Made by a program: the position numbers and the translations under genes. Source: Bacteroidota bacterium (GTDB taxonomy: Bacteria; Bacteroidota; Bacteroidia; UKL13-3). From it: a DNA stretch of 35,700 nucleotides. Under the pieces are notes generated by a model. The model was not told the origin of the DNA. It saw only the letters and a list, made by a program, of their open reading frames with translations, and did no database searches. The number at the start of each line of letters is the position of its first letter. The stretch's first letter is position 1. Where the stretch lies: assembly GCA_947481365.1 (NCBI GenBank), contig CANKGI010000003.1:1-35700 (forward strand). Direction: 5' to 3'. Positions 10,271-31,784 of this stretch are shown one piece after another.

Positions 10271-11142
10271 GTTTCGGGAATTAAGTCATGCGTTTGCGAA
10301 TTTATTTCTTCGTTTGAAAACCAGTTCTGTGGTGCTACTACAATTTTATTTGGGTTATTGTTCAACCACGCTCCCCACCAACTGAAACTACTGTTAGCAA
10401 TGATATTATGCTTACATCTGCTCATCAGATACATATCTTTCCAACTATGTTCATTAACGTTATGATTGACAAATATTTTATCAAAATTAAGTGGCATGAA
10501 TTCTTTCTTAACCCAATCAATATCATCCGAAAAAAATACCAGTAAAGGTTCTTTCAAGTCAGTTGTTACTTCCGTTATGGCATTATTATAATATGCATCA
10601 CTGCATACTCCATGAAATGTATTTACTGTTGCATTTTCAACATAATCTCCACGTCTGATATGAATAGCAATAGCATTTTTACTTTCAATTTTATCTAAAA
10701 GTTCTTTGTTTTGGGTGTCAAGTTTTTTTGAATCAAATGCAAATAAATTTCTTACGAATGCTTGCTGGTCATCAAAATATTTATAACTCTGAAAGTACCC
10801 CTCAAGATAAACTGGCTCATTCAATTTTAAAACTGTTGGATTAAAATCAAATCTTTTCTCACTGTAATACTTGGGATAATTTAGGTTTAATTTTCTTTTG
10901 ATTTTATTGAAATAGTTTAGCTGTTTGAAACGCTTTATTTCTTTTTCGTTTGCAACGTTGTAATTATTTGAAAAAATATTGAGTTCAAAATCTCTTGGAG
11001 TAAACGTTGCTGTTTTTACTTTGTCATTAAAAAAATTAGCATCAATTAAAACTTTTGTCTTATTTGTTTTAGCAATAATACTTGCTAAAGCAAATTGAAA
11101 CATTTGATTGCCTAATCCACCTTGTAATTTAATAATGATCAT
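10255..11142 (-). CDS. Alpha-1,2-fucosyltransferase, GT11 family
   Basis: GGLGNQMFQ, YLEGYFQS, HIRRGDY, FSDDIDW and IIANSSFSWWGAWL: the canonical GT11 motifs. Confidence 0.93.
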   Translation of the reverse strand: MIIIKLQGGLGNQMFQFALASIIAKTNKTKVLIDANFFNDKVKTATFTPRDFELNIFSNNYNVANEKEIKRFKQLNYFNKIKRKLNLNYPKYYSEKRFDFNPTVLKLNEPVYLEGYFQSYKYFDDQQAFVRNLFAFDSKKLDTQNKELLDKIESKNAIAIHIRRGDYVENATVNTFHGVCSDAYYNNAITEVTTDLKEPLLVFFSDDIDWVKKEFMPLNFDKIFVNHNVNEHSWKDMYLMSRCKHNIIANSSFSWWGAWLNNNPNKIVVAPQNWFSNEEINSQTHDLIPETWKKI

Positions 11143-11145
11143 TGT

Positions 11146-11886
11146 TTAACTTTTTATAAGCCAAAAACATCCACAACCATATTTTTGATTGCTAACAATT
11201 TCTGGATTCGCATTCCAAATAAAATCGCCCAAATCTGTTATCAATGAAAAGTTTTTTAATTCAAATCCTTCAAAACAACTTAATATCATTTCGAATGAAT
11301 AAATCCTATGAGCATTAAACTGTATTCTAGCCTTTCCAACAGGTACAACAAATAAAAGGCTGCCTCCTTTTGCAACAACGCGCTTCAATTCTTCTATTGC
11401 TTTTAAGTCACCAATCGGATCAATTGGATCTCCATATCTACCAAGCCCAATATGCTCAACTGTGTGCATACATGAAATAGATTCAACTGAATTATCTGAA
11501 AAATCGAGATTCATTAAATCGCCCTTTAATGTTTTCAGATTTGGAAGTGTGAGATTAGCTGGTCTGTAATCATAAAAATCTACCGGGACATAAGCAGATA
11601 GTTGTGAACAGAAGTGTAGTGTTGATGAAATATCGATATGTTTTGAAGGATTAATATCTTTAATTATTCGTGTTGCCCATGCGGGATGGTAAACGTAATG
11701 TGCATCGAATCCAGTATTATTTGTATTGTCATTAAGACACGGAAAATTATCTTCATTATTGATTGAAAATCTACTATCTGATTTACTTTTAAATGTAGTT
11801 AAATCATTATCAAATTTCTTTCTTGCCTTATAATTGTGGTAATACGTTTTTGTGATGTGAATATATTTATATACTAATTTTTTCAT
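11146..11886 (-). CDS. DUF268-type / class I SAM-dependent methyltransferase-like protein
   Basis: FDAHYVYHPAWA, HIDISS, SISCMHTVEHIGLGRYGDPIDP, VPVG and FNAHRIY match my recollection of the DUF268 family found in glycan loci. Confidence 0.8.
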   Translation of the reverse strand: MKKLVYKYIHITKTYYHNYKARKKFDNDLTTFKSKSDSRFSINNEDNFPCLNDNTNNTGFDAHYVYHPAWATRIIKDINPSKHIDISSTLHFCSQLSAYVPVDFYDYRPANLTLPNLKTLKGDLMNLDFSDNSVESISCMHTVEHIGLGRYGDPIDPIGDLKAIEELKRVVAKGGSLLFVVPVGKARIQFNAHRIYSFEMILSCFEGFELKNFSLITDLGDFIWNANPEIVSNQKYGCGCFWLIKS

Positions 11887-11980: not shown

Positions 11981-13204
11981 TTAAACAATTTGCCAGCTAG
12001 AATTTACATTAACAAATCCTGCATTATTAGTAAGATATTGTGTGTTATTTCCAATGTCTAAAATTTCTATGTCGAATGCATTTGGATTGTGGTATATATT
12101 TGACTTTTCGCCTACACTTATCCCAAATGCAAAATGGTAATTATTTGCCCTTAAATTGTGTTTTACTTCACATATAATTTCATTTTCACCTTTAACAATT
12201 GAAACAGGTCCTCTTGTTGTAAAAACGGGTATCTCATCTATTGATAAACATCCAATTGCTACGCTAATATTTTCAAAATCTTGCTTTGAATCAATTTTAA
12301 ATTTTATCTTGATGTTTTCATCAAATTTTATTTGGTTGGTGTTATTAAAACCATTTAGAATTTCAATTTTCAAAACTCTAATTATATCATCACCGTATAC
12401 ATAATCTGAGCAATCAAAATGTGACGAAGTGTTTATGCCAGTTTTAAGATAATTTTCGATGGCGTGGGTTGCACTTCCAATTATCTTAATTGATCCATTA
12501 TGTAATAATATTCCTTTATTACATAAGGCTTTTACTGCAGCCATATTATGACTCACAAATATAACTGTTCTTCCTTCTCCCGAAACGTCTTTCATTTTGC
12601 CAAGACATTTCTTTTGAAATTCTGCATCACCAACAGCCAGTACTTCATCCACAATTAATATTTCGGGCTCAAGATGAGCAGCCACAGCAAACGCCAATCG
12701 AACATACATACCCGATGAATAACGCTTTACTGGTGTATCTAAAAATCTTTCCACTTCAGCAAATGCAACAATCTCATCAAATTTTTTCTGTATTTCATTT
12801 TTGCTCATTCCTAAAATAGAGCCATTCAAAAAAACATTTTCTCGTCCGCTGAGTTCGGGATGAAAACCGGTACCAACTTCGAGCAAACTGGCAACACGTC
12901 CTTCAATTTTAATTCGTCCATGTGTAGGAGTAACTATCCTGCTTAAAATTTTTAGTAAAGTTGATTTTCCAGCTCCGTTTCTTCCAATTATGCCAACACG
13001 ATCACCTTGATTTATATCAAACGAAACATCATTTAAAGCCCAAAATGTTTCTTGTGAAGCTGACTGATCAGCATCTTTCTTTTTAAAAATAGATTTAATA
13101 TTATTGGTTATGTGCTCGCGAAACGAATCATTATGCCTTATCTTCTGATGTTGCAGAACATAGCTTTTACTGATATTTTCAACTGTAATAATTGTGTTAC
13201 TCAT
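11981..13204 (-). CDS. wzt: Polysaccharide ABC exporter ATP-binding subunit with C-terminal Wzt_C domain
   Basis: Walker A GRNGAGKST, signature YSSGM, Walker B ILIVDEVLAVGD and H-loop VSH, followed by a beta-rich C-terminal extension of about 150 aa. Confidence 0.95.
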   Translation of the reverse strand: MSNTIITVENISKSYVLQHQKIRHNDSFREHITNNIKSIFKKKDADQSASQETFWALNDVSFDINQGDRVGIIGRNGAGKSTLLKILSRIVTPTHGRIKIEGRVASLLEVGTGFHPELSGRENVFLNGSILGMSKNEIQKKFDEIVAFAEVERFLDTPVKRYSSGMYVRLAFAVAAHLEPEILIVDEVLAVGDAEFQKKCLGKMKDVSGEGRTVIFVSHNMAAVKALCNKGILLHNGSIKIIGSATHAIENYLKTGINTSSHFDCSDYVYGDDIIRVLKIEILNGFNNTNQIKFDENIKIKFKIDSKQDFENISVAIGCLSIDEIPVFTTRGPVSIVKGENEIICEVKHNLRANNYHFAFGISVGEKSNIYHNPNAFDIEILDIGNNTQYLTNNAGFVNVNSSWQIV

Positions 13205-13229: not shown

Positions 13230-14078
13230 CTAAATAATATCGGCAAAAGTCTTTTCCATTTTACGAAAATACCAAAGACCAATAATTAACAGAAATATGC
13301 TAATTGCACACGACACTAAAAATCTTTCAAAATAAAATGGCGTATTGCCGCCAAGAATACACCACCTAAAACCATCAATTACACCAACCATTGGATTAAG
13401 TGCATATAGATATTTAGCAAACATTGGAATTTTTGCACTGTTATAAATATCACTGCTGCTAAAAGCAATGGGTGATACATACAAACCAAATTGTATGATA
13501 AATGGAATGATAAAACGGAAATCACGATAACGAACGTTTAATGCTGCAATAATTAAACCTAGTCCAATAGAAGTTATTAAGTTTAATATCAAAAAAAATG
13601 GCAGATACAGCATTTTTATATCAGGACTAAAACGATATAAAACCATTATTACGATAAGAATTATAAATGAAATCAGAAAATCAATTAAACAAACAATTAC
13701 CGTGCTGATTGGAACAATTAATCTGGGGAAATAAACTTTGGTTAATAGATTTGAATTTACAATAAGTGAATTACTCGAATCGCTAAATGCTGTTGCAAAA
13801 AACTGCCAAGGCAAAGTGGCTGCACAAACAAGCAAAATACGTGGAACACCTTCGGGGACATTTGAATTAAAAAGCCAACCGATAAACCACATCACAAAAA
13901 TGGTAAGCAGCGGACGAATAATGCTCCAAAGCAATCCAATTGCAGTTTGTTTATAGCGAACTAATATGTCGCGCCAAGCAAGAAAATATAACAATCCGCG
14001 AAATTGCCATAAATCCTGCCAGTAATTTTTATTCTCACTATCCGGATCAATTATAATTGTTCGGCTTTTATTAATCAT
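13230..14078 (-). CDS. wzm: Polysaccharide ABC exporter permease
   Basis: WRDILVRYKQTAIGLLW, KVYFPR, RYRDF and LNPM...FR motifs; about six TM helices; adjacent to wzt. Confidence 0.95.
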   Translation of the reverse strand: MINKSRTIIIDPDSENKNYWQDLWQFRGLLYFLAWRDILVRYKQTAIGLLWSIIRPLLTIFVMWFIGWLFNSNVPEGVPRILLVCAATLPWQFFATAFSDSSNSLIVNSNLLTKVYFPRLIVPISTVIVCLIDFLISFIILIVIMVLYRFSPDIKMLYLPFFLILNLITSIGLGLIIAALNVRYRDFRFIIPFIIQFGLYVSPIAFSSSDIYNSAKIPMFAKYLYALNPMVGVIDGFRWCILGGNTPFYFERFLVSCAISIFLLIIGLWYFRKMEKTFADII

Positions 14079-14435
14079 TGTAAATTGTTAATGAACGCAA
14101 TTTAAAGAATTGTAGATAAGAGCCAACAATATTTATATGAGATTTATGTTGAAAACAATTATCAAATAACAATCTATTTCAAACTGTACTACTTAAGTTT
14201 TATCGTTTTACTTATAAAGTGTATTGTACAATAACAGTTGATATTTGCGGCAAATAAATTTATGATATAAACTATTCTTTCATGGGTTTGAATCTTTTTT
14301 CGAAAGATGAAAGCATCAATTGGTTTATGAGGATTTTTATAAACTTTTAAATATCATTTCTGCCCAAGTTCAATTCATCATTGGAAATATTGTAATTTTT
14401 CAAGTGGTGTTTTTTTGACATCATGATTTCCGTTT

Positions 14436-15227
14436 TTAAACAAATTTTTTCAAGTGATAATAAAAATATTTGACAACTCTGTAAAAAATATTTCTACTCT
14501 TGATATCTGGCCTGGGTGGTAAAATGCTTTTAAGTGAATCTATTTCAATATCGCTTAAATAAGTTTTGTGCACTTGTTTTCGTTCTTCGTTTATGCTTGC
14601 AAAATTTTTAACATTTGAACTGATTCCCTTAGTGTCGTATACAGAAATAGGAAATGGAAGATATTTTGTTGAAACTTTATTTATTGCAATTGCATGAAAG
14701 AAAAAATCATAATCAGAGACTATCTTATAATTTTCATTATAAAATCCAATTTCATAAAATAATTTTCTTCTAATAAATGTTGCTGGATGCCATACATTAT
14801 GATTAAAAAGGTGATTTATATCCAATATTTCCGGAAGTTTTTCAAGCTTTTGTTTATAGCCAAAATCAAAAATAAGTTCTCCATACAAAATATCTTCAGT
14901 ATGATTTACACCAAAAACTTTTGAAAGAATATTTTTGTCTGTTAAAAAATCTCCGGAATTTAAGAATAAACAAAATTCACCTTTGGCTGCACGAATAGCT
15001 TTATTCATCGCATCATAAATTCCTGAATCCTTTTCTGAATCCCAATAGGCCATTTTATCTGCGTATTTTTTGATGACGTCAACACTTCCATCCCTTGAAC
15101 CGCCATCGATTACAATGTATTCAAAATTGCTGAATGTCTGGGATACAACACTTGAAACTGTTTTCTCTAATCCGCTTGAATTATTGAAATTAATTGTTAT
15201 GATAGAAAGTTCGGGCGATGTATCCAT
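14436..15227 (-). CDS. Glycosyltransferase family 2 (WcaE/WfgS-like)
   Basis: LSIITINFN, IDGGSRDGS, SEKDSGIYDAMNK, FLNSGD, HPATF and SDYDF motifs. Confidence 0.92.
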   Translation of the reverse strand: MDTSPELSIITINFNNSSGLEKTVSSVVSQTFSNFEYIVIDGGSRDGSVDVIKKYADKMAYWDSEKDSGIYDAMNKAIRAAKGEFCLFLNSGDFLTDKNILSKVFGVNHTEDILYGELIFDFGYKQKLEKLPEILDINHLFNHNVWHPATFIRRKLFYEIGFYNENYKIVSDYDFFFHAIAINKVSTKYLPFPISVYDTKGISSNVKNFASINEERKQVHKTYLSDIEIDSLKSILPPRPDIKSRNIFYRVVKYFYYHLKKFV

Positions 15228-15384: not shown

Positions 15385-16701
15385 TCATTCAACATTCCTT
15401 TCACCTGAATGATAATGTGGAAAATATTTATTCATAAAAGTCTTGTCGTTAGCAATTTCGGGAGGCAGAAGTAATGCTGAATTTACAAAATACTCGAGCA
15501 TTTCATGTAAAACAATATCTGGTTTATTATCAATCACTCGCGAAACAGGAATTGTTTCCATCCATGCGTAAGTTGAAGTTTTGAAAGTGGGTGTAAGAAA
15601 ATTCCTGAGATGCTCTGAATAACTATCACGAACTACAAATATTTTCAAATGATTCACTTCATGCTCCATTTTAAAAGTAAAATAATTCCCTACAAGATGC
15701 ACTGTATCATAATCACCAACAACTAGAGGTGGCTGTATATTTTTGAGATGGTAATAAAATATTGGAGAAGAAATCTGATCACTAAACCCAAATTGCGTTT
15801 GCAAATCTCCTCCTAATAAAGTTGATGAATCGATTGTAAAATCTTCTGCCTGTAAAATTTTAGTATCTGGAAAATCAACTTGAATTTTTTGCATAACTTT
15901 TTGGTATGCTAAAAATGCTCCGAATTCATTCCAATGTGTATCGGTTATATAATAAGTTGGTCGAATATTTTTTCCCTCAATGAGTTCCTTTCTGCAATCA
16001 ATAAATTTTATAATAGTATCCTGTTGTAAATAGGTATACACCTGATCGAGTTTAGAAAACTTTAACTGATTTCTCAGAATAATCGGCATGTTCTCGGGAT
16101 AAATTCTTGACTTAACAGGCGCAATCATAAAGTAATATTTTATCCCCCTGTTGTCAAACCATTTAGTAACAATTTGAAGATTTATTTTAATGGTTTTTAA
16201 CTCATCATTTGTATATGGAACACTGGTACATTCAATATATTCATTACCTGAATTGTACAACCAATTCTCTTTGCCTATAAGAACTTTTTGCGGCAGCGGA
16301 GAAATATTCAGAAAAATAAATTTGAATTTATTTATGGCCATCACCGAAATATTTCGGTAAGCAAATCTGTCGTTAAAATAATCTTGAAATTGAAAAAATA
16401 CTTTCCAAATATTTTCGGTTTGAAAAGTTGGAAACTCGGCTAAACTTCTTTTCTCTAAACTTGATTTTTCCTTCTCACCCAACATTGGAAAATAAATAAT
16501 GATAAGAAATGACAGTATAAAAAATAGTTTGCTAAATGAAAGCAATGCGATGTGTTTCTTAAGTAAAAATATACTTAGAACAGCTATCACAAAACTTAAA
16601 CCCAAATTGAGTATGAGCGAAGTTGTAAGTTGAGCTATAACGATATAACATAACATCGAAAGATAAATGAACAACAAACTATATTTTAACTTGCTGCTCA
16701 T
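15385..16701 (-). CDS. AlgJ/AlgX-like SGNH O-acetyltransferase, membrane-anchored
   Basis: EKRSLAEFP, YFNDRFAYR, GKENWLY, APVKSRIYPE, catalytic TDTHWN (D-x-H), GGDL and RDSY (Ser). About three N-terminal TM segments. The ATG at 16701 overlaps the MBOAT stop (TGATG); the ORF track starts at the TTG at 16704. Confidence 0.85.
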   Translation of the reverse strand: MSSKLKYSLLFIYLSMLCYIVIAQLTTSLILNLGLSFVIAVLSIFLLKKHIALLSFSKLFFILSFLIIIYFPMLGEKEKSSLEKRSLAEFPTFQTENIWKVFFQFQDYFNDRFAYRNISVMAINKFKFIFLNISPLPQKVLIGKENWLYNSGNEYIECTSVPYTNDELKTIKINLQIVTKWFDNRGIKYYFMIAPVKSRIYPENMPIILRNQLKFSKLDQVYTYLQQDTIIKFIDCRKELIEGKNIRPTYYITDTHWNEFGAFLAYQKVMQKIQVDFPDTKILQAEDFTIDSSTLLGGDLQTQFGFSDQISSPIFYYHLKNIQPPLVVGDYDTVHLVGNYFTFKMEHEVNHLKIFVVRDSYSEHLRNFLTPTFKTSTYAWMETIPVSRVIDNKPDIVLHEMLEYFVNSALLLPPEIANDKTFMNKYFPHYHSGERNVE

Positions 16702-18134
16702 CAAAATCTGAAATATATAAATGGGTTATAAGTACCTGAAACCACGCTCAAGGCGGAGTAAACAAAAATCAAAATGAGTGACACTGATTTTATTGTACGA
16801 AAAGTTGACTTTACTGTTTGTATAGATATTGTTGACTGGTAAAGAATTTGAACGGTCTTTTTAAGCATAAAATTTATTCCGTTAACTGATAAAATTAAAC
16901 CTAGCATACAGCAAAATATATTTTCGCGATTTAGAAACATATCAATTGAGTAAATACTGTTCTTATTATAAATAAACAAGGACTGAATAAATGTTATCGA
17001 CTTTTCTAATGTTTCGGATCTGAAAAAAACCCAAGCCAACACTACCACGAAAATGGTGTAAAAATGCATAATAAAATTTCCTCCTCTACGAAGAAACTTT
17101 TCAAAACCCAATCTTTCGATAATCATAAAAAAACCATGAATCAAACCCCAAATAACAAAATTCCAGCTTGCACCATGCCAAAGGCCTGTAACAAAAAATA
17201 CAAATATCAGGTTAAAATAAACGCGTGATTTACTCACTCTGTTTCCGCCCATTGGAATGTATAAATAATCTCTGAACCAATTTGAAAGTGATATATGCCA
17301 ACGTTGCCAAAACTCGCGAACTGATTTTGCCTTATATGGAAAATTAAAATTCTCTAGAAAATCAAAACCAAGCATTTTACCTAATCCTATTGCCATATCA
17401 GAGTAACCCGAAAAATCAAAATACAATTGAAGTGAATAAGAAATAATAGCAAACCAAGTAGCTGAAGTTGATAATTGAGCCGGGCCTATATCAAATAATA
17501 AATCAGTTGTATAACCTAACGAATTGGCAATTATCACTTTCTTTCCCATGCCAATTATAAATCGTTGAATTCCTAATTGAAATTGTGCCGAATTCAAAAA
17601 TCTACCTGTAAACTGATAGGCTATATCTTTATATCGAATGATAGGTCCAGCAACAAGTTGAGGAAATAGGCTTATATAGAGTGTTAAGTCAACAAATGAT
17701 TTCTGAACTTTATTCTCTTTACGATAAACATCAATCAAATAAGAAATGCTGTGAAAAGTATAAAAAGAAATTCCAACAGGCAACTTCACTTTTGCAAATT
17801 TTATCGGGTCGATATGAAAATCCACCAAAAGGTAATTGATATTTTCTACTACAAAACTGCTGTACTTAAAAATGACCAACAACAATAAATTAACAAATAC
17901 GCCAACCGAAATGGCTGTTTTTGTTTTGCTCCTGTCAATCCATTTTCCAATAAAATAATTAAATGTAATGGAGAGCATCATTAAAACAATCATCTCTCCT
18001 TCACCAAAAACGTAAAACAAAATACTGAGAATTACCAGTACAGCATTTCTGAATTTAGAATTACGTGAAAGATATGCCAGTAGTAGCGTTACCGGCAAAA
18101 AGAAGAAAAGGAAAAACGGTGAACTGAATACCAT
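16701..18134 (-). CDS. MBOAT family O-acyltransferase (AlgI/DltB/PatA-like)
   Basis: LPVGISFYTF, FPQLVAGPI, YFDFSGYSDMAIG, FWQRWHISL, YIPMGGNR and GLWHGA (catalytic His); C-terminus PFIYFRF. Confidence 0.95.
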   Translation of the reverse strand: MVFSSPFFLFFFLPVTLLLAYLSRNSKFRNAVLVILSILFYVFGEGEMIVLMMLSITFNYFIGKWIDRSKTKTAISVGVFVNLLLLVIFKYSSFVVENINYLLVDFHIDPIKFAKVKLPVGISFYTFHSISYLIDVYRKENKVQKSFVDLTLYISLFPQLVAGPIIRYKDIAYQFTGRFLNSAQFQLGIQRFIIGMGKKVIIANSLGYTTDLLFDIGPAQLSTSATWFAIISYSLQLYFDFSGYSDMAIGLGKMLGFDFLENFNFPYKAKSVREFWQRWHISLSNWFRDYLYIPMGGNRVSKSRVYFNLIFVFFVTGLWHGASWNFVIWGLIHGFFMIIERLGFEKFLRRGGNFIMHFYTIFVVVLAWVFFRSETLEKSITFIQSLFIYNKNSIYSIDMFLNRENIFCCMLGLILSVNGINFMLKKTVQILYQSTISIQTVKSTFRTIKSVSLILIFVYSALSVVSGTYNPFIYFRF

Positions 18135-19067
18135 TTAAATTTTTATTTTTTTAATATCAGCTGAAATTAATTTCGAAAAATATGTAGCGCCATCTTTATT
18201 CAAATGTTCCTGATCTGAAAAATATGCGGCCTCAGTCAGGCTATTCGAATAGTCAATTAATTGATATGTTGAATCAATAACAGATTGAATTCTGTTCTTA
18301 AATCCTTTTGTTGATTTACGAAACTGAGGAGGTAAGCAAAACAACAATTGAATATTATTTTCACTGCATTTTTTCTGAATATTTAAAATGGAATTTCGAT
18401 AATCAAGATTCATTCTTAAAACAGAAAGATTGATATTGTTCATTTCAAAAACAGTATGCTCATCTTCCCCTTTTTTGTCAACCAATGTTGCTCCAAAGGA
18501 ATTTATATTTGTTGTTCGTGCGTCAGGTTTCTCTTTGCCAAAAAGCAAATATTTCAAAGCATTGATGAAATTTACATTTTGCCGATACGTATACGAAATG
18601 CTTGTTGCCAATTCGTTTTTTCCAAGTTCAGAATTTATTTTTTTACAGATAAATGGGTTGTCAACGTAAGGATACAAGACATCTTTCCTGAAAATGATTC
18701 CGCTTTTTGTGTACAACGCAGCGTAATCATCAACATTATAAATAACCAGTTTTGGTTTGTGTGCCGATTTTAAAACCAAGTCAAGTATGGTTTCATGGAA
18801 AATTGGATTTGAACCACTTTGTCCTAGATTATAACAACTCAATCCTGTATTTAATTTTATCTCTTCGGGCGAGTAATCGTTTAGTGCTTCTGATGAGCCA
18901 ATAATAACAACATCTGCCTCAATTTTATTTTCAAGAATCAGTTCAATACGGTTATCGTATTTCTGCTTTTTTGAAAACACAGATAAAACATATCCAATAA
19001 ATATATCACCTGAAATGAATATTAAAATGAAGAGTATATATTTTATATATTTTTTCATACTTCTCAT
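18135..19067 (-). CDS. SGNH-like MBOAT partner protein (DltD/PatB-like)
   Basis: Single N-terminal TM, IIGSS (block I Ser), YNLGQSG and FSDQEHLNKDGA (DxxH). The likely start is the ATG at 19067 or 19058, not 19103, which lies inside the upstream MBOAT. Confidence 0.8.
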   Translation of the reverse strand: MRSMKKYIKYILFILIFISGDIFIGYVLSVFSKKQKYDNRIELILENKIEADVVIIGSSEALNDYSPEEIKLNTGLSCYNLGQSGSNPIFHETILDLVLKSAHKPKLVIYNVDDYAALYTKSGIIFRKDVLYPYVDNPFICKKINSELGKNELATSISYTYRQNVNFINALKYLLFGKEKPDARTTNINSFGATLVDKKGEDEHTVFEMNNINLSVLRMNLDYRNSILNIQKKCSENNIQLLFCLPPQFRKSTKGFKNRIQSVIDSTYQLIDYSNSLTEAAYFSDQEHLNKDGATYFSKLISADIKKIKI

Positions 19068-19068
19068 C

Positions 19069-20541
19069 TCAAAATTGAAAATATACAAAAGGTGTTTCAA
19101 CAATATTCGACATCAGCATTATCGAAAATGCTGCAAAAAAGTAAATGCCAAATCGCTTAACCTGCGGAACTCTTTCCAAATATTCGTCTAATGTGGTGTT
19201 TCTTAATTTCCATTCAAAGTAAAAAAAAGCTGCGACAAAAAGGATGAGAACAGTGAAGGTTGTAAAATCGGTTCCGAGATACAAAAGATTTTGTCTCATG
19301 TTATTGGGATTATGCCAAATTTTCGATAACGAATCGCCAACATCGGTAAACATATTTAAAAAAAGTATGTAAGAATCATGAATATTTTTCGACCTGAAAA
19401 AAAATCCTCCAAATGCAAAAAGATGATAAATACAAATTGCTTGAATAATGTGTCTAATACTCGAATAATTTTTTAGCCAAGTTTTATTAATCAATTCTTT
19501 CCTATAGTCGCTTGTAGCTTTGGTGTATATTACGATGATACCATTGTATACGCCCCATGCAATGAAAGTCCAGTTTGCACCGTGCCAGAAACCGCTAATT
19601 AAAAACACAAACAAGAACACAAGCTGCCACTTCCATCTTTTTCTGATTAAGGGAAACAGTAAATAATCTCTAAACCAATTCATGAGAGATACGTGCCACT
19701 TACTCCAAAAACTATTAAACGATTTAGCAAAAAATGGAAGATCAAAATTTACCATTAAATCAATACCGAGTAATTTTGCCGAACCTCTTGCTATATCAGA
19801 ATACCCTGAAAAATCGCAATATACCTGCCATACAAAAAACAATAAAGCCAGATAAACTGAAGGTCCTTTTGAATTTTCGGGATTATCAAAAACAAAACTT
19901 ACAAGCACATTGATTTGATCGGCTATCACAATTTTTTTAAAGAGCCCCATTAAAATTAACCGTAACCCTTTAACAATATTCGACCATTCAAATTTTTGAT
20001 TGATATAAAACTGTGATAGTAAATGCTGTGGTCGTTCGATAGGACCTGCAACAAGCTGAGGAAAAAACATTACGTACAATGCATAAATTCCAAAATGACG
20101 CTCGGCTTTTTGTTTCCCTTTATAAATTTCGAGCGTATAACTCATTGCCTGAAAGGTGTGGAATGATAACCCGATTGGCAATAAAATGGATAAAAAAGGA
20201 AATTTATAGGTATGAATATTTAACGATTGAAATAATGCTTCAATGTTTTCGGTAAAAAAATTATAATACTTAAAAACACATAAAACACCAATGTTTGCAA
20301 CAAGACTTAGTTGCAGGTAAATTCCTTTTTTGTTTTGCGGAGCTGCTTCAATTAATATTCCAGCCAAATAATCTACCATGATTGTGAAGGCTAATATGAG
20401 AATATAAACCGGCACAAAAAACATATAGAAATAACAGCTGGCTGCTAAAAGTAATACCCATCGATATTTATGCGGAAGCACATAGTAAAATAGTGTTACT
20501 AATGGCAAAAAAATTAAATATTGGATGGAGTTAAATAGCAT
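19069..20541 (-). CDS. MBOAT family O-acyltransferase (AlgI/DltB-like)
   Basis: MLFNS, LPIGLSFHTFQ, FFPQLVAGPIER, YCDFSGYSDIA, FWSKWHVSL and GFWHGANW motifs; C-terminus PFVYFQF. Confidence 0.95.
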   Translation of the reverse strand: MLFNSIQYLIFLPLVTLFYYVLPHKYRWVLLLAASCYFYMFFVPVYILILAFTIMVDYLAGILIEAAPQNKKGIYLQLSLVANIGVLCVFKYYNFFTENIEALFQSLNIHTYKFPFLSILLPIGLSFHTFQAMSYTLEIYKGKQKAERHFGIYALYVMFFPQLVAGPIERPQHLLSQFYINQKFEWSNIVKGLRLILMGLFKKIVIADQINVLVSFVFDNPENSKGPSVYLALLFFVWQVYCDFSGYSDIARGSAKLLGIDLMVNFDLPFFAKSFNSFWSKWHVSLMNWFRDYLLFPLIRKRWKWQLVFLFVFLISGFWHGANWTFIAWGVYNGIIVIYTKATSDYRKELINKTWLKNYSSIRHIIQAICIYHLFAFGGFFFRSKNIHDSYILFLNMFTDVGDSLSKIWHNPNNMRQNLLYLGTDFTTFTVLILFVAAFFYFEWKLRNTTLDEYLERVPQVKRFGIYFFAAFSIMLMSNIVETPFVYFQF

Positions 20542-20770
20542 TTTTTGTTTTCTGTATGGCCTAAATTTATGTAATAAGTACTTTTAAGATTTACCAATTT
20601 CAAAAAAAGGTCTTTTTTACCTAATAACACCCGAATCTTACAATCATTAACCAACAACTCATTGTGAATAAATGATTCAATTAAGATATTCAGAATGGAA
20701 TCAAAAAAAATGTGAATATATGGGACAAGATTTTGAAAGTTAATTACCTAAATTTTAGATATTCGCAACG

Positions 20771-21886
20771 ATGAACACAAAAAGAAACAAATATTTTTTG
20801 CTATTCTTTATGGTTGTTGCATTCTTTCCTATCATTCAGGAAATTTTTCAACCCTTTAAATTAGTAGGATTATCAGGTGCCTTCGAAAATCATCAAGCCC
20901 CAGACTTTTCTACTCAAAATTTTTTAGACGGAAAATATCAAACAGGTGCTGATGAATATTTGAAAGAAAATACAGCCTTCCGTGCAGATATGATTAGATT
21001 GAGGAATCAAGCTAATTACAGTTTTTTTGGCAATATCAATACCATATTAACTTTAGGTAAGGAGCATTATATTTTCGATCCTAGTTACATTTCGGCTCTA
21101 AATGGCAATGATTTTCTAACTGATTCTATCCGTGATATAGAGACAAATTGTTTAATCAAATCATTACATATTTTAGATTCACTTCATATTCCGCTTATCT
21201 TTTGTATTGCGCCAAACAAAGCTTCATTTTACAATGAATTTTTGCCTCAAAAAACTGTTGAAGGAAATAAAACCAATCAAAAATATTTTGAAAAATTACT
21301 TACAGAAAACCATGTAAATGTGCTCAATTTCGATAGTTGGTTTAAATCTATTAAACAACAAAGCAAGTATCTGCTGATGCCAAAATATGGAGCACATTGG
21401 ACAATTTATGGTGCTTCTCTTGCAGGTGATTCACTATTTAAAATGGTTGAAAAAGTAAAGCAAAAGAAATATGCTTCGTTTTCGGTTTCCAGTTATGATG
21501 AATCATCAAAAGCAAAATACACAGATGATGATTATTTGCCAGCGCTAAATCTAATTGCGAGATGGAATTCTCCAATGATGGCATACCCTCAATTAAAATT
21601 TAATACGGGCGAAAAGCCAAACATCCTTGCCGTTTCTGATAGTTATTTCTGGAGTTTTTACGAACTCGAAATCATGCAAAATTGCGCTTCTCCTAAATCA
21701 GCAATGTGGTATTATAACAAATCGGTTTTTGATTATATGCGTGAAAAAAAATCGGAAAGAAATAATGCAATCAGTTATCAAGATTTAAAAAATAGAGATG
21801 CCATAATTATTTTGGCAGCAGCACCTAGCTTGAAAAATTTCGGATACAATTTTTTTGACCAACTTTCAAGCATCTCGTCAAAATGA
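20771..21886 (+). CDS. AlgJ/AlgX-related SGNH-like protein
   Basis: N-terminal TM, FRADMIRLRNQ, LGKEHYIF, APNKASFY.EFLP, GAHW..YGA and VSDSY; collinear with the protein at 15385-16701. Confidence 0.78.
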   Translation: MNTKRNKYFLLFFMVVAFFPIIQEIFQPFKLVGLSGAFENHQAPDFSTQNFLDGKYQTGADEYLKENTAFRADMIRLRNQANYSFFGNINTILTLGKEHYIFDPSYISALNGNDFLTDSIRDIETNCLIKSLHILDSLHIPLIFCIAPNKASFYNEFLPQKTVEGNKTNQKYFEKLLTENHVNVLNFDSWFKSIKQQSKYLLMPKYGAHWTIYGASLAGDSLFKMVEKVKQKKYASFSVSSYDESSKAKYTDDDYLPALNLIARWNSPMMAYPQLKFNTGEKPNILAVSDSYFWSFYELEIMQNCASPKSAMWYYNKSVFDYMREKKSERNNAISYQDLKNRDAIIILAAAPSLKNFGYNFFDQLSSISSK

Positions 21887-23373
21887 AAAAATATTCGCTC
21901 TATATTTTTATCATTATTCTCATGAGCAGCGGTATTTATTTTCATTTTAGTTCGTGCCACGAAGAAATGCCGAATGATTGTGATCAGTTTGGTTATTTAA
22001 ATTTATCGAAAGCATTTGATGAGCATAAAGTTTTTACGGCTCACGCCAATAGACCATATTTAGATGATTTACTCGACACACTTCGAAAATCAAATTTAGA
22101 TGAACGCGAATTTAGCTGGATGGTAACACCTCATGCCTATTACGTTTTACCTCACACTAACAAAGTCATAAACATGTACTCGCCCGGAACATCATTTGTT
22201 TTACACTTGATACCTATTGAGTATCGTAAAAGAATGTTCCCTGTGTTAGCTATATTTTTCCTCTTACTTTTTTCAATCATTGCATTGTATCGTGCTAACA
22301 ACAATACTTTTGGTTGGGCTGATATTATTTTACTATTATTTGCATTTTACATTACCGAAATAGTTCCTTTCAGAGCTGAGTTTGAACGCATCAATTCATT
22401 ATCCATCACATTTGGTTTATTGCTTGCTGCTGGGATATTATTAAGAAACAAACCACTGTTGAGCTGTTTCTTAATTGCACTTTCGGCAAACTTCAGGTAT
22501 GCAAATTTACTGCTGTTATTGCCTATCATTTTGTTCATCCCTCTTCCAAAAGTAATTTCAGTAAAGAAAGTTTTCGACATAATAAAAATCGGAATTACAT
22601 ATTTCGTAGTTACTCTTATCGCCATTTTGCCTCATTTAATTTATACGTATTTTTTATTGGGAAATCCGTTTAAATCAACTTATGCAGCAATTGATACTGC
22701 TATGAGTATGGATGTTTTAAAAAATTTGAATTTCTATTTTAATTACTCTCAACCTTGGTTCATATTTCATTTATTGCTGGTTGGTGTGATTGCTTATTTT
22801 GCCTATATACAAAAAACAACATGGCGATTTGTATTGTCGTTACTGGCCTTTCCGGTAATTAATTATTTGTTCTTCATTTTTAAAATGGTATCGATGAATT
22901 ACTATCCATATGGAAGTGCGTTTATTTTACTCGGTGCCATTTTATATATTTTAAAAGATGTAAATGTAAGTTTGCAGCAAGCTAAAAGGATTCAGATTGC
23001 ATGTGTTTTTATTTCCTTTTTAACATTTTCGTTTGGTATTATTTCATATTCATCAAAAAACCATCAATCATTTATCGAAGCAAAAAATGAGGTAAAAGGT
23101 TTGTGTTCATATGATATTATTTGGGGTGATTCTTATCCCGGAACTTCCGAATATGTTTGTACTAACAATGGCTTCAGGTATACATGGTCGACCATGAATG
23201 CCAGAATTATTGCAATGAAATTTCTTCACAACAGAAAATATTCACAGGCATTTATTCTTGATGAAATTCCCGTTGATGAAAAAATAATTGAAAGCGAAAT
23301 ACAGTCATGTAATTTGCTATATCATAAAATTCGAGACCCACATTTAGGAAATATTTTAATTATTGATAAATAA
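21883..23373 (+). CDS. Uncharacterised polytopic membrane protein, putative GT-C fold glycosyltransferase (paralogue A)
   Basis: N-terminal TM followed by an acidic CDQFGY motif and a large loop with YSPGT, then about ten more TMs, NFR, GNPF.STY and a small soluble C-terminal domain. ATGA overlap with the upstream gene. The CDS is secure; the function is inferred. Confidence 0.7.
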   Translation: MKKYSLYIFIIILMSSGIYFHFSSCHEEMPNDCDQFGYLNLSKAFDEHKVFTAHANRPYLDDLLDTLRKSNLDEREFSWMVTPHAYYVLPHTNKVINMYSPGTSFVLHLIPIEYRKRMFPVLAIFFLLLFSIIALYRANNNTFGWADIILLLFAFYITEIVPFRAEFERINSLSITFGLLLAAGILLRNKPLLSCFLIALSANFRYANLLLLLPIILFIPLPKVISVKKVFDIIKIGITYFVVTLIAILPHLIYTYFLLGNPFKSTYAAIDTAMSMDVLKNLNFYFNYSQPWFIFHLLLVGVIAYFAYIQKTTWRFVLSLLAFPVINYLFFIFKMVSMNYYPYGSAFILLGAILYILKDVNVSLQQAKRIQIACVFISFLTFSFGIISYSSKNHQSFIEAKNEVKGLCSYDIIWGDSYPGTSEYVCTNNGFRYTWSTMNARIIAMKFLHNRKYSQAFILDEIPVDEKIIESEIQSCNLLYHKIRDPHLGNILIIDK

Positions 23374-23384
23374 AAAATGAATTG

Positions 23385-24872
23385 ATGAATAAATACATTT
23401 TCTATTTAATTTTATTGATTTTATGCAGTACTGGTTTTTATTTAAAATTTCAAAAAAACCATCAGGATATCCCTATGCGTTGTGATGAATTCGGATACAT
23501 GAATTTAGCAAAAGTATTTGATGAAAACATCGCGTATGTTGAGCATACGAAAAGACCATACATGCCTAAACTTCTCGACACCTTGAGAAAATCATCGATA
23601 ACAGAAGAAGAAATAGATTGGATGGTCGTTCCGCATGCTTATTATGTTGTACCGAACACAAATAAAATTGTTAACCAATATCCTCCGGCAACTTCATGGT
23701 TGTTGAGTTTATTTCCTCTTGAACATCGTAGAATGCTGTTTCCATTAATTGCTGTATTTATTTTTTTATTGTTTCCTTTTTTATCTCAACTTAATATAAA
23801 ACAAAAAAAGGTAAACTGGACAGATTGTGCACTTGTCTTATTTGTTTTTATCATGTCTGTTAGCGTACCGTTCATAACAGAATTTGCTCGAATTAATTCG
23901 CTGGCATTCACGTTTGGATTACTATTAACGGCAGGAATGCTTGTTGAACGAAACACAATATTGGCATTCTTTTTAATTGCATTAACAATTAATTTCAGAC
24001 CAGTAAATATGCTGATGTTAATTCCAATAATCACGTTTATTCCCATCTCAACTTGGCTACGCGAAAAAAATTACACGGCTTTTATTACTGCTATTCTGAA
24101 ATATGTTGGTCTGCTTATTCTTGCTGTTCTTCCTTACTTTGTGTATGTGTATTTGTTGTTTGGAAATCCATTTATGTCAACGTATTCTTCTTACGATACT
24201 ACCGCAAATAACAACCTCTTTGAGAATATGCTTTTTTACTTCAACATAAATCGGCATTGGTTTATTTTTCATTTAGTGGTTGTTGGTGTATTACTTACTT
24301 TGTCGTTACTTAAAATTACTTCCTATACATTCTTTTTTCAAGCACTATTTTTTCCGATATTCAATTATGTTTTTTTTATCTACCATGATATTCATTTAGA
24401 TTATTATCCATATGCATCTTCCATTATTTTACTTGGCATCTGTATAGCTCAAATTCAAAAAATTCCTTACAAAATCAATCATACTAAAATTGCTCTTGTA
24501 TTTAGTTTACTTATCGGCATCACTATTTTTTGTGATGGATTATATACTTCATACAATAACCCGGTTCGTTCTTTTGAAGATGCAAAAAAAGACTATTCGT
24601 GCTTATGTAATTATGATATTGTTTGGGGAGAATTATTAACGGGAAGTTGCGAGTATGTATGCGGAAACAATGGATATAAATACAGTCCAACATCACCAAG
24701 GGCAAGAAAAATAGCTATGAAATTTTTACACGACCATCATTACAAACAAGCGATTTTATTAAACGATAATTTGGTAGATAAGCAAACAGTGATTGAAGAA
24801 GTTTTGTCTATTAATTTAAAATATCATATTGTATTTGATAACATTGTAAAAGAAATTTTAGTATTAGAATAA
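23385..24872 (+). CDS. Uncharacterised polytopic membrane protein, putative GT-C fold glycosyltransferase (paralogue B)
   Basis: Collinear with paralogue A: CDEFGY, LLDTLRKS, PHAYYV, QYPP, RINSL, GNPF.STY, YYPY, EYVC.NNG and IAMKFLH. ATG at 23385; the ORF track uses the TTG at 23382. Confidence 0.7.
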   Translation: MNKYIFYLILLILCSTGFYLKFQKNHQDIPMRCDEFGYMNLAKVFDENIAYVEHTKRPYMPKLLDTLRKSSITEEEIDWMVVPHAYYVVPNTNKIVNQYPPATSWLLSLFPLEHRRMLFPLIAVFIFLLFPFLSQLNIKQKKVNWTDCALVLFVFIMSVSVPFITEFARINSLAFTFGLLLTAGMLVERNTILAFFLIALTINFRPVNMLMLIPIITFIPISTWLREKNYTAFITAILKYVGLLILAVLPYFVYVYLLFGNPFMSTYSSYDTTANNNLFENMLFYFNINRHWFIFHLVVVGVLLTLSLLKITSYTFFFQALFFPIFNYVFFIYHDIHLDYYPYASSIILLGICIAQIQKIPYKINHTKIALVFSLLIGITIFCDGLYTSYNNPVRSFEDAKKDYSCLCNYDIVWGELLTGSCEYVCGNNGYKYSPTSPRARKIAMKFLHDHHYKQAILLNDNLVDKQTVIEEVLSINLKYHIVFDNIVKEILVLE

Positions 24873-26288
24873 ATGGTTTTTAGCAGCATAACATTCCTTG
24901 TGTATTTTTTGCCTTTCTTTTTGTTGGGGTATTATTTAGTACCCGACAGATTTAAAAATCGTTGGCTGGTTCTTGGAAGTCTTTTATTTTACAGCTGGGG
25001 TGCACCAAAATTCTTACCGGCTGTAATTGTTAGCTGCCTAATTGATTTTATTTGCGCATTAAATTACAAAAAGAAATACGGAAAATTCTGGTTTGTATTT
25101 TCTATTGTTTCAAACGTTTTGATGTTGGTATATTTTAAGTATGCCAATTTTTTTGCCGAGAACATTAATTCATTAACTGAAATTTTAGGTGGAAACAGAT
25201 TTCAATGGAGTGCTATTATTCTTCCTATTGGAATTTCATTTCTTACATTCCAAAAAATTAGCTACCTCACTGATGTATATCGTGGAGATTGTGAACCACA
25301 GAGGAACTTCACAAATTATCTTCTCTTTATCATTTTGTTTCCTCACTCTATTGCTGGTCCAATTATTCGTTACAAAGAAATTAGCGAACAGCTTGTAAAC
25401 CGCTTTAAGTTCATCACACCCGATTATATTATTTTAGGACTTACCCAATTTATCATTGGATTAAGTAAAAAAGTTTTGCTTTCAAACACATTAGGTGAAC
25501 AGGCAAATTCTATTTTTAATTTAAACTTAAATGAACTCGATTTTACGAAATCGTGGATTGGCATTTTATCTTATACGTTTCAAATATATCTCGACTTCTC
25601 AGGTTACTCTGATATGGCTATCGGACTTGGAAAAATGATGGGATTTAGAATTCCTGTCAATTTTAATTTCCCATATACATCAAAAAGCATAACCGAGTTT
25701 TGGAAACGTTGGCACATTACTTTGGGTAATTGGATGAAAGATTATTTATACATCCCGTTAGGTGGTAATAAAGTTACCATTAACAGAACTTACATCAATC
25801 TTTTGGTGGTATTTATTTTATCTGGTTTTTGGCATGGTGCAAGCTGGAGTTTTATTATTTGGGGAGCTTATCACGGCAGCTTTTTAATTATCGAAAGATT
25901 ATCACTCTCTAAAATTTTAAAAAGAATTCATCCGTCCATTTCAGTCACATATACATTTTTGGTGGTGATGATTGGATGGGTATTTTTTCGTTCGGCTGAA
26001 TACAACGATGCAATATTATTTATCAGAAAAATGTTTGATTTCGGAAGAATCGATTTCGCATTTTTGAGTACGTTAAACAATCGTTATTATTTTGTTCTAA
26101 TTACCGCATTTGTTTTCTCTTTTCAATCTGAAAAAATACAGCTTCAACTCAATGCTGTTTACGAAAAACAAATAACGATTAAAGGTTTTATTTGGATAAC
26201 TTATTTCGCTTTGCTACTGTTGTATCTGCTCAATTTAGGAGAATTATTCGCAACCGGATTTAATCCGTTTATCTATTTTAAGTTTTAA
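24873..26288 (+). CDS. MBOAT family O-acyltransferase (AlgI/DltB/PatA-like)
   Basis: LPIGISFLTFQ, IAGPIIRY, YLDFSGYSDMAIG, FWKRWHITL, YIPLGGN and GFWHGA motifs; C-terminus PFIYFKF. The ATG directly abuts the upstream TAA. Confidence 0.95.
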   Translation: MVFSSITFLVYFLPFFLLGYYLVPDRFKNRWLVLGSLLFYSWGAPKFLPAVIVSCLIDFICALNYKKKYGKFWFVFSIVSNVLMLVYFKYANFFAENINSLTEILGGNRFQWSAIILPIGISFLTFQKISYLTDVYRGDCEPQRNFTNYLLFIILFPHSIAGPIIRYKEISEQLVNRFKFITPDYIILGLTQFIIGLSKKVLLSNTLGEQANSIFNLNLNELDFTKSWIGILSYTFQIYLDFSGYSDMAIGLGKMMGFRIPVNFNFPYTSKSITEFWKRWHITLGNWMKDYLYIPLGGNKVTINRTYINLLVVFILSGFWHGASWSFIIWGAYHGSFLIIERLSLSKILKRIHPSISVTYTFLVVMIGWVFFRSAEYNDAILFIRKMFDFGRIDFAFLSTLNNRYYFVLITAFVFSFQSEKIQLQLNAVYEKQITIKGFIWITYFALLLLYLLNLGELFATGFNPFIYFKF

Positions 26289-30495: not shown

Positions 30496-30683
30496 AACAA
30501 GTAATTAATAAGTCTGCCTGTGGTTGGTAAACTTATTGTTCAAAATTTTAAAAGGGGCACGAAGTTAATCAAAAATCGATTTTTGAAAAATTGATTTATA
30601 AAAACTTTATTTGTGCTTGAAAAGATACAAAAATTGAATTGACATTTACGTTTATTTTTTTGTATTGAAGAGGATATAAATGA

Positions 30684-31784
30684 ATGGAAAAAAATAAAAA
30701 TCATTATGCCATTATTATGGCAGGAGGCATCGGTACTAGGTTTTGGCCATATAGCCGAAGTTCTTTCCCAAAGCAATTCATCGATATTCTTGGTATCGGA
30801 AAAAGTTTGCTTCAGGTAACTTATGAGCGTTTTCTGAAAAATTTTGAGAAAGACAATATCTATATTATTGCCAATCAAGCCTATTTCGACCTGATAAAAC
30901 AGCAAATTCCGGATATTAAAGATGATTGCGTTTTGTGCGAACCGATTGCCAAAAATACTGCTGCTTGTATTGCTTATGCATCTCATAAAATTCAAAAAGC
31001 CAATACACATGCCGTTTGCGTGGTTGCTCCTTCAGATCATTTGATTATTGACGAGGATAAATTTAACGAAAACATGAACCATGCGCTTCAATATGCAAAG
31101 AAAAATGAAGCACTAATTACTTTAGGAATCAGACCAAGTCGCCCTGATACAGGCTATGGTTATATTCAGTTTATCGAAGAAAAAGATTCGACCGACAATG
31201 TGTTTAAAGTAAAAACATTTACCGAAAAACCGACCATTGAACTGGCTCAAACATTTGTTGAAAGTGGCGATTTTCTTTGGAATGCTGGTATTTTTATCTG
31301 GAGTTCATCGGCAATTAAAAACGCTTTTAAAGAGCACATGCCCGAAATGTATTCGTTGTTTAAAGATGCCTCAAAACATTTTTCTACACCTCAAGAACAA
31401 AAAGCTATTCAAGCTGTATATGAACAATGTCGCTCTATCTCTATCGATTATGGTGTGATGGAAAAAGCTTCTAATGTTTTTGTCATTCCAGCCGATTTTG
31501 GATGGTCGGATTTAGGAACGTGGACCTCTCTTTATGAAAACTCAATGCACGATGAAAACAATAATGTAATTCAAGGCAAACATGTTGTGGTTTACGACTC
31601 TAAAAATTCAATTATTGCTCAAGGAAACAAAAAGAGCAACAAATTAATCGTTGTAAAAGGGATTGATAACCTGATTATAGTTGACACACCTGATGTGCTC
31701 ATGGTTTGTAATAAAAACTTCGAGCAGGAAGTGAAAGATATGGTGATGGATATTAATTTGAAGTTTGACGAGAAATATACATGA
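30684..31784 (+). CDS. manC: Mannose-1-phosphate guanylyltransferase (no phosphomannose isomerase domain)
   Basis: IMAGGIGTRFWPYSR..PKQF, EP..KNTA, PSDH, TGYGYI, FTEKP, SIDYGVME and WSDLG motifs. Confidence 0.95.
   Translation: MEKNKNHYAIIMAGGIGTRFWPYSRSSFPKQFIDILGIGKSLLQVTYERFLKNFEKDNIYIIANQAYFDLIKQQIPDIKDDCVLCEPIAKNTAACIAYASHKIQKANTHAVCVVAPSDHLIIDEDKFNENMNHALQYAKKNEALITLGIRPSRPDTGYGYIQFIEEKDSTDNVFKVKTFTEKPTIELAQTFVESGDFLWNAGIFIWSSSAIKNAFKEHMPEMYSLFKDASKHFSTPQEQKAIQAVYEQCRSISIDYGVMEKASNVFVIPADFGWSDLGTWTSLYENSMHDENNNVIQGKHVVVYDSKNSIIAQGNKKSNKLIVVKGIDNLIIVDTPDVLMVCNKNFEQEVKDMVMDINLKFDEKYT

Follow-up and report, generated by a model that had tools for sequence, protein, structure and literature searches.

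A probable periplasmic glycan-tailoring cassette with three MBOAT acyltransferases, three partner types, and two GT-C-like proteins in environmental Bacteroidota

Two divergent arms with eight closely spaced genes in all (positions 15385 to 26288), found on a 35,700-nucleotide stretch of a freshwater Bacteroidota bacterium of the UKL13-3 lineage (GenBank assembly GCA_947481365.1, contig CANKGI010000003.1, forward strand; hereafter, the window), probably constitute a periplasmic tailoring cassette belonging to the ATP-binding cassette (ABC) transporter-dependent glycan locus that surrounds them. This island encodes three MBOAT acyltransferases (g4, g2, and g8), three partner proteins of different types (g3, g1, and g5), and two membrane paralogues with a GT-C-like fold, memA (g6) and memB (g7), together referred to as mem. 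The window corresponds to contig C3 of a genome of 2.67 Mb that is 89.9% complete, with a G+C content of ~32%. An earlier description made from the sequence alone (the original prediction) had proposed this eight-gene content, and the open reading frames (ORFs) lie exactly at the positions it gave and bear the right family labels. The catalytic His of the WHGA motif is present in all three MBOATs, the gene order yields the three MBOAT/partner pairs (g4 with g3, g2 with g1, and g8 with g5), and the GT-C-like label of the two paralogues agrees with modeled structural matches led by ArnT (top by Foldseek; Z score, 13.9). The observation is therefore confirmed. The interpretation given with it, three parallel acyl-relay lines with distinct donors or acceptor positions on the exported glycan, one of them coupled to lipid-donor glycosylation, is supported in part only.

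Arrangement and conservation of the cassette

Genes within each arm are separated by junctions that range from a 4-nt overlap up to an 8-nt gap. The start of g3 is more likely the ATG at 19067, 1 nt past the g4 stop, than the start of the ORF call, because the resulting length of 310 aa fits that of the g3 orthologues (308 to 311 aa). A 5,700-nt contig from an independent lake-water metagenome spans positions 16215 to 21914 at ~98.9% identity; an assembly artifact is thus excluded as the source of the gene order and of the short divergent gap. DNA nearly identical to positions 18000 to 25000 of the window also occurs in lake-water metagenome runs, including those of three studies not flagged as possible sources of the assembly, and no RNA run is among the listed runs that match this segment.

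Loci carrying mem were collected by a pattern scan with one genome per species, which returned 41 loci, and the island proteins were then searched by phmmer. Both arms occur in the same order in eight loci (L006, L008, L009, L010, L012, L013, L015, and L017) from seven genomes, since L006 and L013 share one genome; L008 is unpublished. The left arm is complete in nine loci, with one more cut by a contig end, and the g5-mem-g8 trio is complete in 12, with four more cut by contig ends. L035 and L039 look like one cassette split across two contigs. Two Vicingaceae loci, L030 and L016, have the right arm without the left arm, and in L005 the g5/g8 pair is swapped for another MBOAT and a 334-aa protein with a weak DltD-like C terminus, located upstream of mem. 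The separable arms and the L005 swap indicate that the pairs behave as modules and that mem keeps an adjacent acyl-relay pair.

The cassette is rare and patchy in its distribution as judged from these searches. The mem family was found in one of 40 relatives and was not found in the three same-genus genomes searched (69 to 93% complete). An even sample of the class gave a mem match in seven of 400 other genomes, three of them at 590 bits or more (one of these unpublished). In one genome, G001, the glycan core together with the cassette is present twice in full (L006/L050 and L013/L052), at sites ~215 kb apart. The GT4b, WzyC, WcaJ, X, and g5 genes of the second copy are split or shortened, which could reflect decay or long-read indel errors.

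In the relatives, a membrane protein of ~390 aa (protein X) is encoded at the head of the left arm, in place of the 229-bp gap of the window. A single protein query did not find X in the genome of the window, which is 89.9% complete, and the protein has no Pfam match and no PDB sequence match. It may be GT-C-like, a lead based on weak signs: hhalign probability to the mem family is 41% only, and its Atlas feature neighbors are named RgtA/B/C/D-like.

Three separate MBOAT lineages with a PatA-type motif

All three acyltransferases exceed the 27-bit cut-off of the MBOAT family PF03062 in Pfam (101.8 bits for g2, 76.5 for g4, and 98.0 for g8). The catalytic His stands in LWHGASW (g2), FWHGANW (g4), and FWHGASW (g8), and the corresponding H321 is invariant across 11 g8 orthologues. 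Their last six residues (FIYFRF in g2, FVYFQF in g4, and FIYFKF in g8) form the PatA-type FxYxxF acyl-shuttle motif, which is invariant in the g8 clade as F466-I-Y468-F-x-F471. PMC12148441 assigns the acyl-shuttle function of bacterial MBOATs to this C-terminal motif: the motif Tyr of PatA is auto-acetylated from acetyl-CoA and then donates to PatB, and the Dlt system carries the motif on a separate small protein.

Against the DltB model TIGR04091 of NCBIfam (cut-off, 375 bits), the three MBOATs fall far short, reaching 152, 129.3, and 161.4 bits only. The best match to DltA (TIGR01734) is 47 bits against a cut-off of 559.85, and DltC (TIGR01688) has no match, in a genome whose 89.9% completeness leaves both absences unproven. 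Together with the PatA-type Tyr motif, the sub-cut-off DltB scores and the lack of DltA and DltC matches argue for three PatA-type relays fed by acyl-CoA rather than for D-alanylation.

The three MBOATs are 33 to 42% identical to one another. A maximum likelihood tree of 36 rows (the three window MBOATs plus 33 from related loci, of which three belong to the unpublished L008) resolves three orthologue clades (starred in the tree), each of which contains one window gene. Support is 100/99 for the clade with g2 (10 rows), 100/99 for that with g4 (11 rows, plus a two-row sister group), and 99/97 for that with g8 (13 rows). On this phylogeny, the three MBOATs are ancient, separate clades and not recent duplicates.

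The sister group of g4 forms a fourth MBOAT clade, present in two loci (L005:7535-10008 and L016:4799-6280). A fourth MBOAT is also encoded in the genome of the window itself, on contig C63 (L053:6054-7535, plus strand). This 493-aa protein scores 119.5 bits against PF03062 and stands alone, adjoining ruvB and followed by an unannotated ORF that is cut by the contig end. Its target may be a separate one, for example peptidoglycan.

Partner proteins of three types

The g1 protein matches PF16822 (ALGX) in Pfam at 71.5 bits (cut-off, 26.5). Compared with solved structures, its family profile finds Bacillus cereus PatB1 at 9.1e-15 and AlgJ at 1.4e-7, and the family is invariant for D255-T-H257-W258 and for R359-D-S361, the Ser block. 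The family match and the D-x-H and Ser blocks together identify g1 as a predicted SGNH-like O-acetyltransferase of the AlgJ/AlgX/PatB1 type.

The g3 protein reaches 24 bits against DUF1574 in Pfam, under the cut-off of 29.1, and a sequence comparison of its family with the PDB gave no real match, only one hit at chance level, so that a fold search was needed. The AlphaFold2 (AF2) model of g3 (predicted local distance difference test [pLDDT] score, 78) has DltD in all of its top 10 Foldseek rows (best E value, 8.9e-6), followed by GDSL/SGNH esterases and PatB. G69-S70-S71, which holds the block I Ser, is invariant in the family. The model thus assigns to g3 a DltD-like SGNH fold with a block I Ser. 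A link to Leptospira, suggested by DUF1574 and by LA_3751-like names, was rejected when a literature search, including PMC4863578, gave nothing relevant.

The g5 protein falls just under the PF16822 cut-off of 26.5 bits (24.9 bits). Its family profile matches AlgJ at 8.9e-7, and hhalign places it with the g1 family at a probability of 96.6, with g1 and g5 sharing 25% identity. G207, A208, H209, W210, D290, and S291 are invariant in the 14 sequences of the g5 family, which retains P-x-K, H-W, and S-D-S.

Two paralogues with a GT-C-like fold

The memA and memB proteins are 42% identical, and neither has a Pfam or NCBIfam match. The AF2 model of memA (pLDDT score, 92.8) finds ArnT as the top Foldseek match (E value, 6e-5; probability, 1.0), and ranks 1 to 37 are occupied by GT-C enzymes only. 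VIA alignment of the model to ArnT (5f15) covers 416 residues with a root mean square deviation of 5.4 and the Z score given above; it is full length and includes the C-terminal periplasmic domain. Alignment to Pmt1-Pmt2 gives a Z score of 13.4. This model indicates a GT-C (ArnT/PMT-like) fold for memA and its paralogue memB. In addition, the neighboring Atlas clusters of mem carry RgtA/B/C/D-like names, with PMT_2 in 23 to 52% of their members.

Loop 1 of mem, immediately after the first transmembrane (TM) helix, contains the motif CDEFGY, in which Asp34 is kept in all 42 of 42 sequences from several phyla. This residue presumably corresponds to the catalytic Asp of GT-C enzymes (ArnT, PglB, and PMT). 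A FastTree phylogeny, considered for its branching order only, joins memA to the second copies found at L010, L015, and L017 and memB to the first copies there. This grouping implies that the duplication is shared and that the gene order has been swapped. The memA-type gene comes first in the window, versus the memB-type gene in these three loci.

The cassette as part of an ABC-exported glycan locus

Wzm, Wzt, an initiating phosphoglycosyl transferase, and a ligase candidate are all encoded beside the island (Table 1), and their family matches identify the locus as an ABC-dependent pathway of the O-polysaccharide type. Among the relatives, the order GT4a-GT4b-WzyC-WcaJ-Wzm-Wzt-(variable)-double-GT2 lies beside the cassette in five of the five upstream regions examined, all from published genomes. 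The variable genes include those for a pyruvyl transferase, GT9, an aminotransferase, and a hexapeptide transferase. The double-GT2 gene converges on g1 in all nine of the relatives' loci with a complete left arm. Similarly, the sole genome with a close double-GT2 orthologue (55%) among the 40 relatives is also the sole one with the mem family. Collectively, synteny and co-occurrence suggest that the cassette is part of a conserved, sporadic ABC-exported glycan locus of ~25 to 30 kb.

The window departs from this order, in that Wzm, Wzt, and the variable glycosyltransferase genes lie between double-GT2 and g1, whereas the relatives have Wzm and a short Wzt (~255 aa) before double-GT2. The Wzt of the window shares 54 to 60% identity with Wzt genes located elsewhere in the relatives' genomes but only 36 to 42% with the short, cassette-linked Wzt. 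Its C-terminal extension, with a methyltransferase gene following directly, recalls the arrangement of cap-recognizing O-polysaccharide exporters.

Comparison with characterized systems

The single parts of the cassette are, by their matches, members or near-members of known families. PatA/PatB of Gram-negative peptidoglycan and PatA1/PatB1 and PatA2/PatB2 of the Bacillus secondary cell wall polysaccharide (SCWP) likewise place an MBOAT with the catalytic His and FxYxxF beside an extracytoplasmic SGNH-type transferase. The island differs from these in having three pairs with three partner types, joined to GT-C-like genes, in a Gram-negative ABC-exported glycan locus. A review (PMC7759979) reports for Bacillus anthracis that O-acetylation of a single SCWP is influenced by PatA1 as well as PatA2, and the statement in the original prediction that characterized systems use one MBOAT per pathway is accordingly too strong. 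The alginate system (AlgI/AlgJ/AlgF/AlgX) also combines an MBOAT with circularly permuted SGNH-like proteins of the AlgJ/AlgX type, and g1 keeps their D-x-H-W and Ser blocks; the island, in contrast, has no AlgF and no alginate synthase, has one partner per MBOAT, and includes a partner, g5, without the DxH Asp.

A parallel in overall logic is teichoic acid tailoring by DltABCD(X) and CsbB/GtcA/YfhO (PMC8035078), where a polymer that is ABC-exported or membrane-linked is modified on the outer side of the membrane by an MBOAT with a DltD-type SGNH protein and by a GT-C enzyme. DltD is also the closest fold to the g3 model. In the cassette, however, no DltA or DltC was found, the MBOATs lie under the DltB cut-off and have the Tyr motif in their own sequence, not on a DltX, the island has no CsbB- or GtcA-type genes, and the host is an outer-membraned member of the Bacteroidota. 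The GT-C enzymes ArnT, PMT, and RgtA-D share with mem the fold and an acidic motif with an invariant Asp after the first TM helix. Unlike these enzymes and the Gtr-type O-antigen glucosylation systems, mem has no Pfam or NCBIfam match and no adjacent GtrA/GtrB-like genes, and in the cassette group its genes are always flanked by acyl-relay genes.

Both MBOAT-SGNH relays and GT-C tailoring have precedents, chiefly in pathogens and in the walls of Gram-positive bacteria. The cassette of environmental Bacteroidota keeps three diverged pairs and putative GT-C enzymes together as one unit, next to a single glycan pathway. A limited full-text literature search found no description of a conserved cassette of three pairs and three partner types with GT-C proteins in a Gram-negative ABC glycan locus, and, within the same search, no earlier proposal linked MBOAT-based tailoring to a Gram-negative surface glycan of the ABC-dependent kind, so that this would be the first.

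Proposed mechanism and alternative explanations

From the observed gene families, folds, motifs, conservation, and synteny, we infer a target, an acyl group, an order of steps, and a set of pairings, modeled on MBOAT-SGNH relays (PMC12148441) and on multicomponent transmembrane glycosylation (PMC8035078). The WcaJ-type transferase would prime the polymer on undecaprenyl phosphate, cytoplasmic assembly by the GT4 enzymes, double-GT2, and the variable glycosyltransferases would follow, and the product would be exported via Wzm/Wzt. At the outer face of the inner membrane, g4, g2, and g8 would take an acyl group, most likely acetyl, from cytoplasmic acyl-CoA, and each MBOAT would load it on the Tyr of its own FxYxxF motif and pass it to the Ser of the neighboring partner (g4 to the DltD-like g3, g2 to the PatB1/AlgJ-like g1, and g8 to the AlgJ-like g5). 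Each partner may then esterify a different hydroxyl or sugar of the glycan. The memA and memB proteins would add one or more side-chain sugars from a polyprenyl-phosphate sugar, and the Wzy_C-family enzyme would join the finished glycan to its acceptor. If so, the cassette would offer a natural system for MBOAT-partner recognition, with three pairs in one membrane sharing the same Tyr motif, and would open two further questions to study: whether an AlgJ-like enzyme works in the absence of the triad Asp, and how, on a polymer exported by an ABC transporter, acylation is coordinated with lipid-donor glycosylation.

Part of what the original prediction put forward survives this comparison. The arrangement is not, as one of its refuting conditions had it, conserved nowhere, since the neighborhood search found both arms in eight loci and the trio in 12; the MBOATs are not redundant recent duplicates but three ancient clades; and the proposed link to the Wzm/Wzt glycan agrees with the synteny conserved in all five relatives examined upstream. 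The idea of distinct donors finds no support, since the three MBOATs have their C-terminal Tyr motif in common and neither DltA nor DltC was found. The coupling to lipid-donor glycosylation goes further than its basis, the fold and one motif only, with no lipid-sugar synthase or flippase in the island.

Several observations weigh against assigning the cassette to glycan tailoring as set out above. The support for it comes from sequence, models, and gene context, and sequence does not distinguish acetyl from other acyl groups. The clearest departure from known families, as read from the alignment, is the missing triad Asp of g5. The g5 family has an invariant Gly207 at this position, where its G-A-H-W aligns with D-T-H-W of g1. 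In Pseudomonas aeruginosa AlgJ, substitution of the triad Asp abolished acetylation in vivo (PMC4148444), and the line that involves g5 may therefore deviate from a canonical relay. The memA protein has Gln at the near-invariant Glu35 (CDQFGY). No membrane-anchored polyprenyl-phosphate sugar synthase and no GtrA-type flippase of a recognizable kind is encoded in the island, the sole GtrA-like gene found in the genome is on another contig (C172), and GT2a, GT2b, and GT2c have no predicted TM helix. Outside the Bacteroidota group that carries the cassette, mem homologues have no MBOAT or AlgJ-like neighbors and no consistent context: among 73 neighbors of 20 such loci scanned with Pfam, no family is seen in more than three, and GT2 is seen in two. 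Finally, the placement and identities of Wzt imply that the locus of the window is rearranged.

The three MBOAT lines might instead act on different envelope targets (peptidoglycan, lipopolysaccharide core or lipid A, and a glycan), with the GT-C proteins acting, like ArnT and RgtA-D, on lipid A or core, and their clustering would then be incidental. This view gains from the structural resemblance of mem, which is greatest to ArnT, an enzyme that modifies lipid A; from the RgtA/B/C/D-like names that recur among the Atlas neighbors of mem; and from L030 and L016, where a right arm stands without a left arm, so that the modules are separable. We judge it unlikely: the cassette is accompanied by the same glycan core in five of five relatives examined and co-occurs with the double-GT2 orthologue, the nearest solved structure to g1 is PatB1, a polysaccharide (SCWP) O-acetyltransferase, and the stand-alone fourth MBOAT on another contig could itself serve peptidoglycan. 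A distinctly unlikely alternative is that there are no three independent relays and that the SGNH/AlgJ-like proteins work jointly, in the manner of AlgJ, AlgF, and AlgX with their single AlgI, with g5 as a noncatalytic or intermediate carrier or a glycan guide and the MBOATs as partly redundant feeders. Alginate acetylation does employ two SGNH-like proteins per MBOAT, and g5 lacks the Asp that is essential in AlgJ in vivo (both from PMC4148444). Such cooperation is difficult to reconcile with the strict 3:3 ratio in eight loci, where each MBOAT lies beside one partner, with three MBOAT clades kept apart at 33 to 42% identity, with the invariant His-Trp, P-x-K, and Ser block that g5 retains, and with the replacement of the g5/g8 pair as a unit in L005 by another MBOAT and the 334-aa protein.

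It is also conceivable, and in our estimation improbable, that the mem proteins are GT-C-fold enzymes with another role, as a polymerase, a ligase, a non-sugar head-group transferase, or a scaffold for acylation of a lipid-linked glycan. The island has no donor-synthase or flippase genes, and in cassette-type loci mem is always between or beside an MBOAT/partner pair, both of which would suit such a role. The loop 1 Asp is nevertheless invariant across phyla, the full-length ArnT alignment takes in the C-terminal periplasmic domain, and the locus already contains a Wzy_C-family ligase candidate. ABC-dependent polymers are not known to need a periplasmic polymerase, which we count against a polymerase role for mem.

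An extension of the tailoring reading is that the right-arm trio (Asp-less g5, GT-C-like mem, and g8), whose genes are translationally abutting in 12 loci, works as one coupled machine in which the acyl relay acts on the sugar handled by the GT-C protein; to this we give an outside chance. The substrate of acylation would be either the donor, a polyprenyl-phosphate sugar, at the periplasmic face or the branch sugar during its installation. An acylated side-branch would then be added in one step and, with the two left-arm relays, the cell would hold a natural set of three orthogonal MBOAT/partner pairs.

Gene content of the window and additional observations

Table 1. Features of the island and of the surrounding glycan locus in the window
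Feature	Position	Strand	Match or remark
GT4a	1783-2841	plus	Pfam
GT4b	2838-3944	plus	Pfam
Wzy_C-family ligase-like	3916-5214	plus	Wzy_C 72.3 bits (cut-off, 31.7)
WcaJ-type phosphoglycosyl transferase	5217-6563	plus	TIGR03023 419 bits (cut-off, 410.75)
double-GT2	6570-8465	plus	Pfam
GT2a	8462-9304	minus	
GT2b	9329-10270	minus	
GT11	10255-11142	minus	
DUF268 methyltransferase (DUF268/Methyltransf_11)	11146-11886	minus	
Wzt, 407 aa, with C-terminal domain	11981-13204	minus	ABC_tran; Wzt_C 28.4 bits, under the cut-off of 30.4
Wzm	13230-14078	minus	ABC2_membrane
GT2c	14436-15227	minus	strand of the left arm continues from here to 8462
g1, predicted PatB1/AlgJ-like acyltransferase partner, 439 aa	15385-16704	minus	hydrophobic N-terminal region
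g2, MBOAT, 477 aa	16701-18134	minus	C terminus F-I-Y-F-R-F
g3, predicted DltD-like SGNH protein, N-terminal membrane anchor	18135-19103	minus	ORF call; likelier ATG at 19067
g4, MBOAT, 490 aa	19069-20541	minus	first gene of left arm; C terminus F-V-Y-F-Q-F
Divergent intergenic region, 229 bp	20542-20770	none	between g4 and g5
g5, AlgJ-like partner, 371 aa, one N-terminal anchor	20771-21886	plus	
g6/memA, predicted GT-C-fold membrane protein, 496 aa	21883-23373	plus	loop 1 motif CDQFGY
g7/memB, predicted GT-C-fold paralogue of memA, 496 aa	23382-24872	plus	loop 1 motif CDEFGY
g8, MBOAT, 471 aa	24873-26288	plus	C terminus F-I-Y-F-K-F

The Bacteroidota-type -7 motif TANNTTTG had 53 matches against 62 expected, none of them within the 229-bp divergent gap. 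Scans for sigma-70 promoters and terminators were at chance level, and no informative promoter motif emerged for this gap. Positions 14001 to 15000, around the 357-bp gap between Wzm and GT2c and adjoining the rearranged part of the locus, have the lowest G+C content in the window (26.4%).

Two ORFs lie beyond the cassette on the minus strand. One at the window end (34482 to 35684) encodes 400 aa and has no Pfam match; the other (30540 to 31010; 156 aa) overlaps the start of a mannose-1-phosphate guanylyltransferase gene on the opposite strand and is probably not a gene.

A protein with a type IX secretion system (T9SS) C-terminal sorting domain is encoded at positions 233 to 1660 (minus strand), divergent from GT4a. 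At the two loci of one relative (L050:10713-12362 and L052:758-2401), PAD_porph, a Porphyromonas-type peptidylarginine deiminase, is encoded there, and a T9SS domain was detected at one of the two. Beside GT4a, other genes are found in three further relatives, and a T9SS cargo link was rejected as a conserved feature. Just upstream of the glycan core of one relative (L048:3157-5127, minus strand) is a gene for a fused AT3-SGNH acyltransferase, which suggests a fourth, AT3-type acylation route at that locus.

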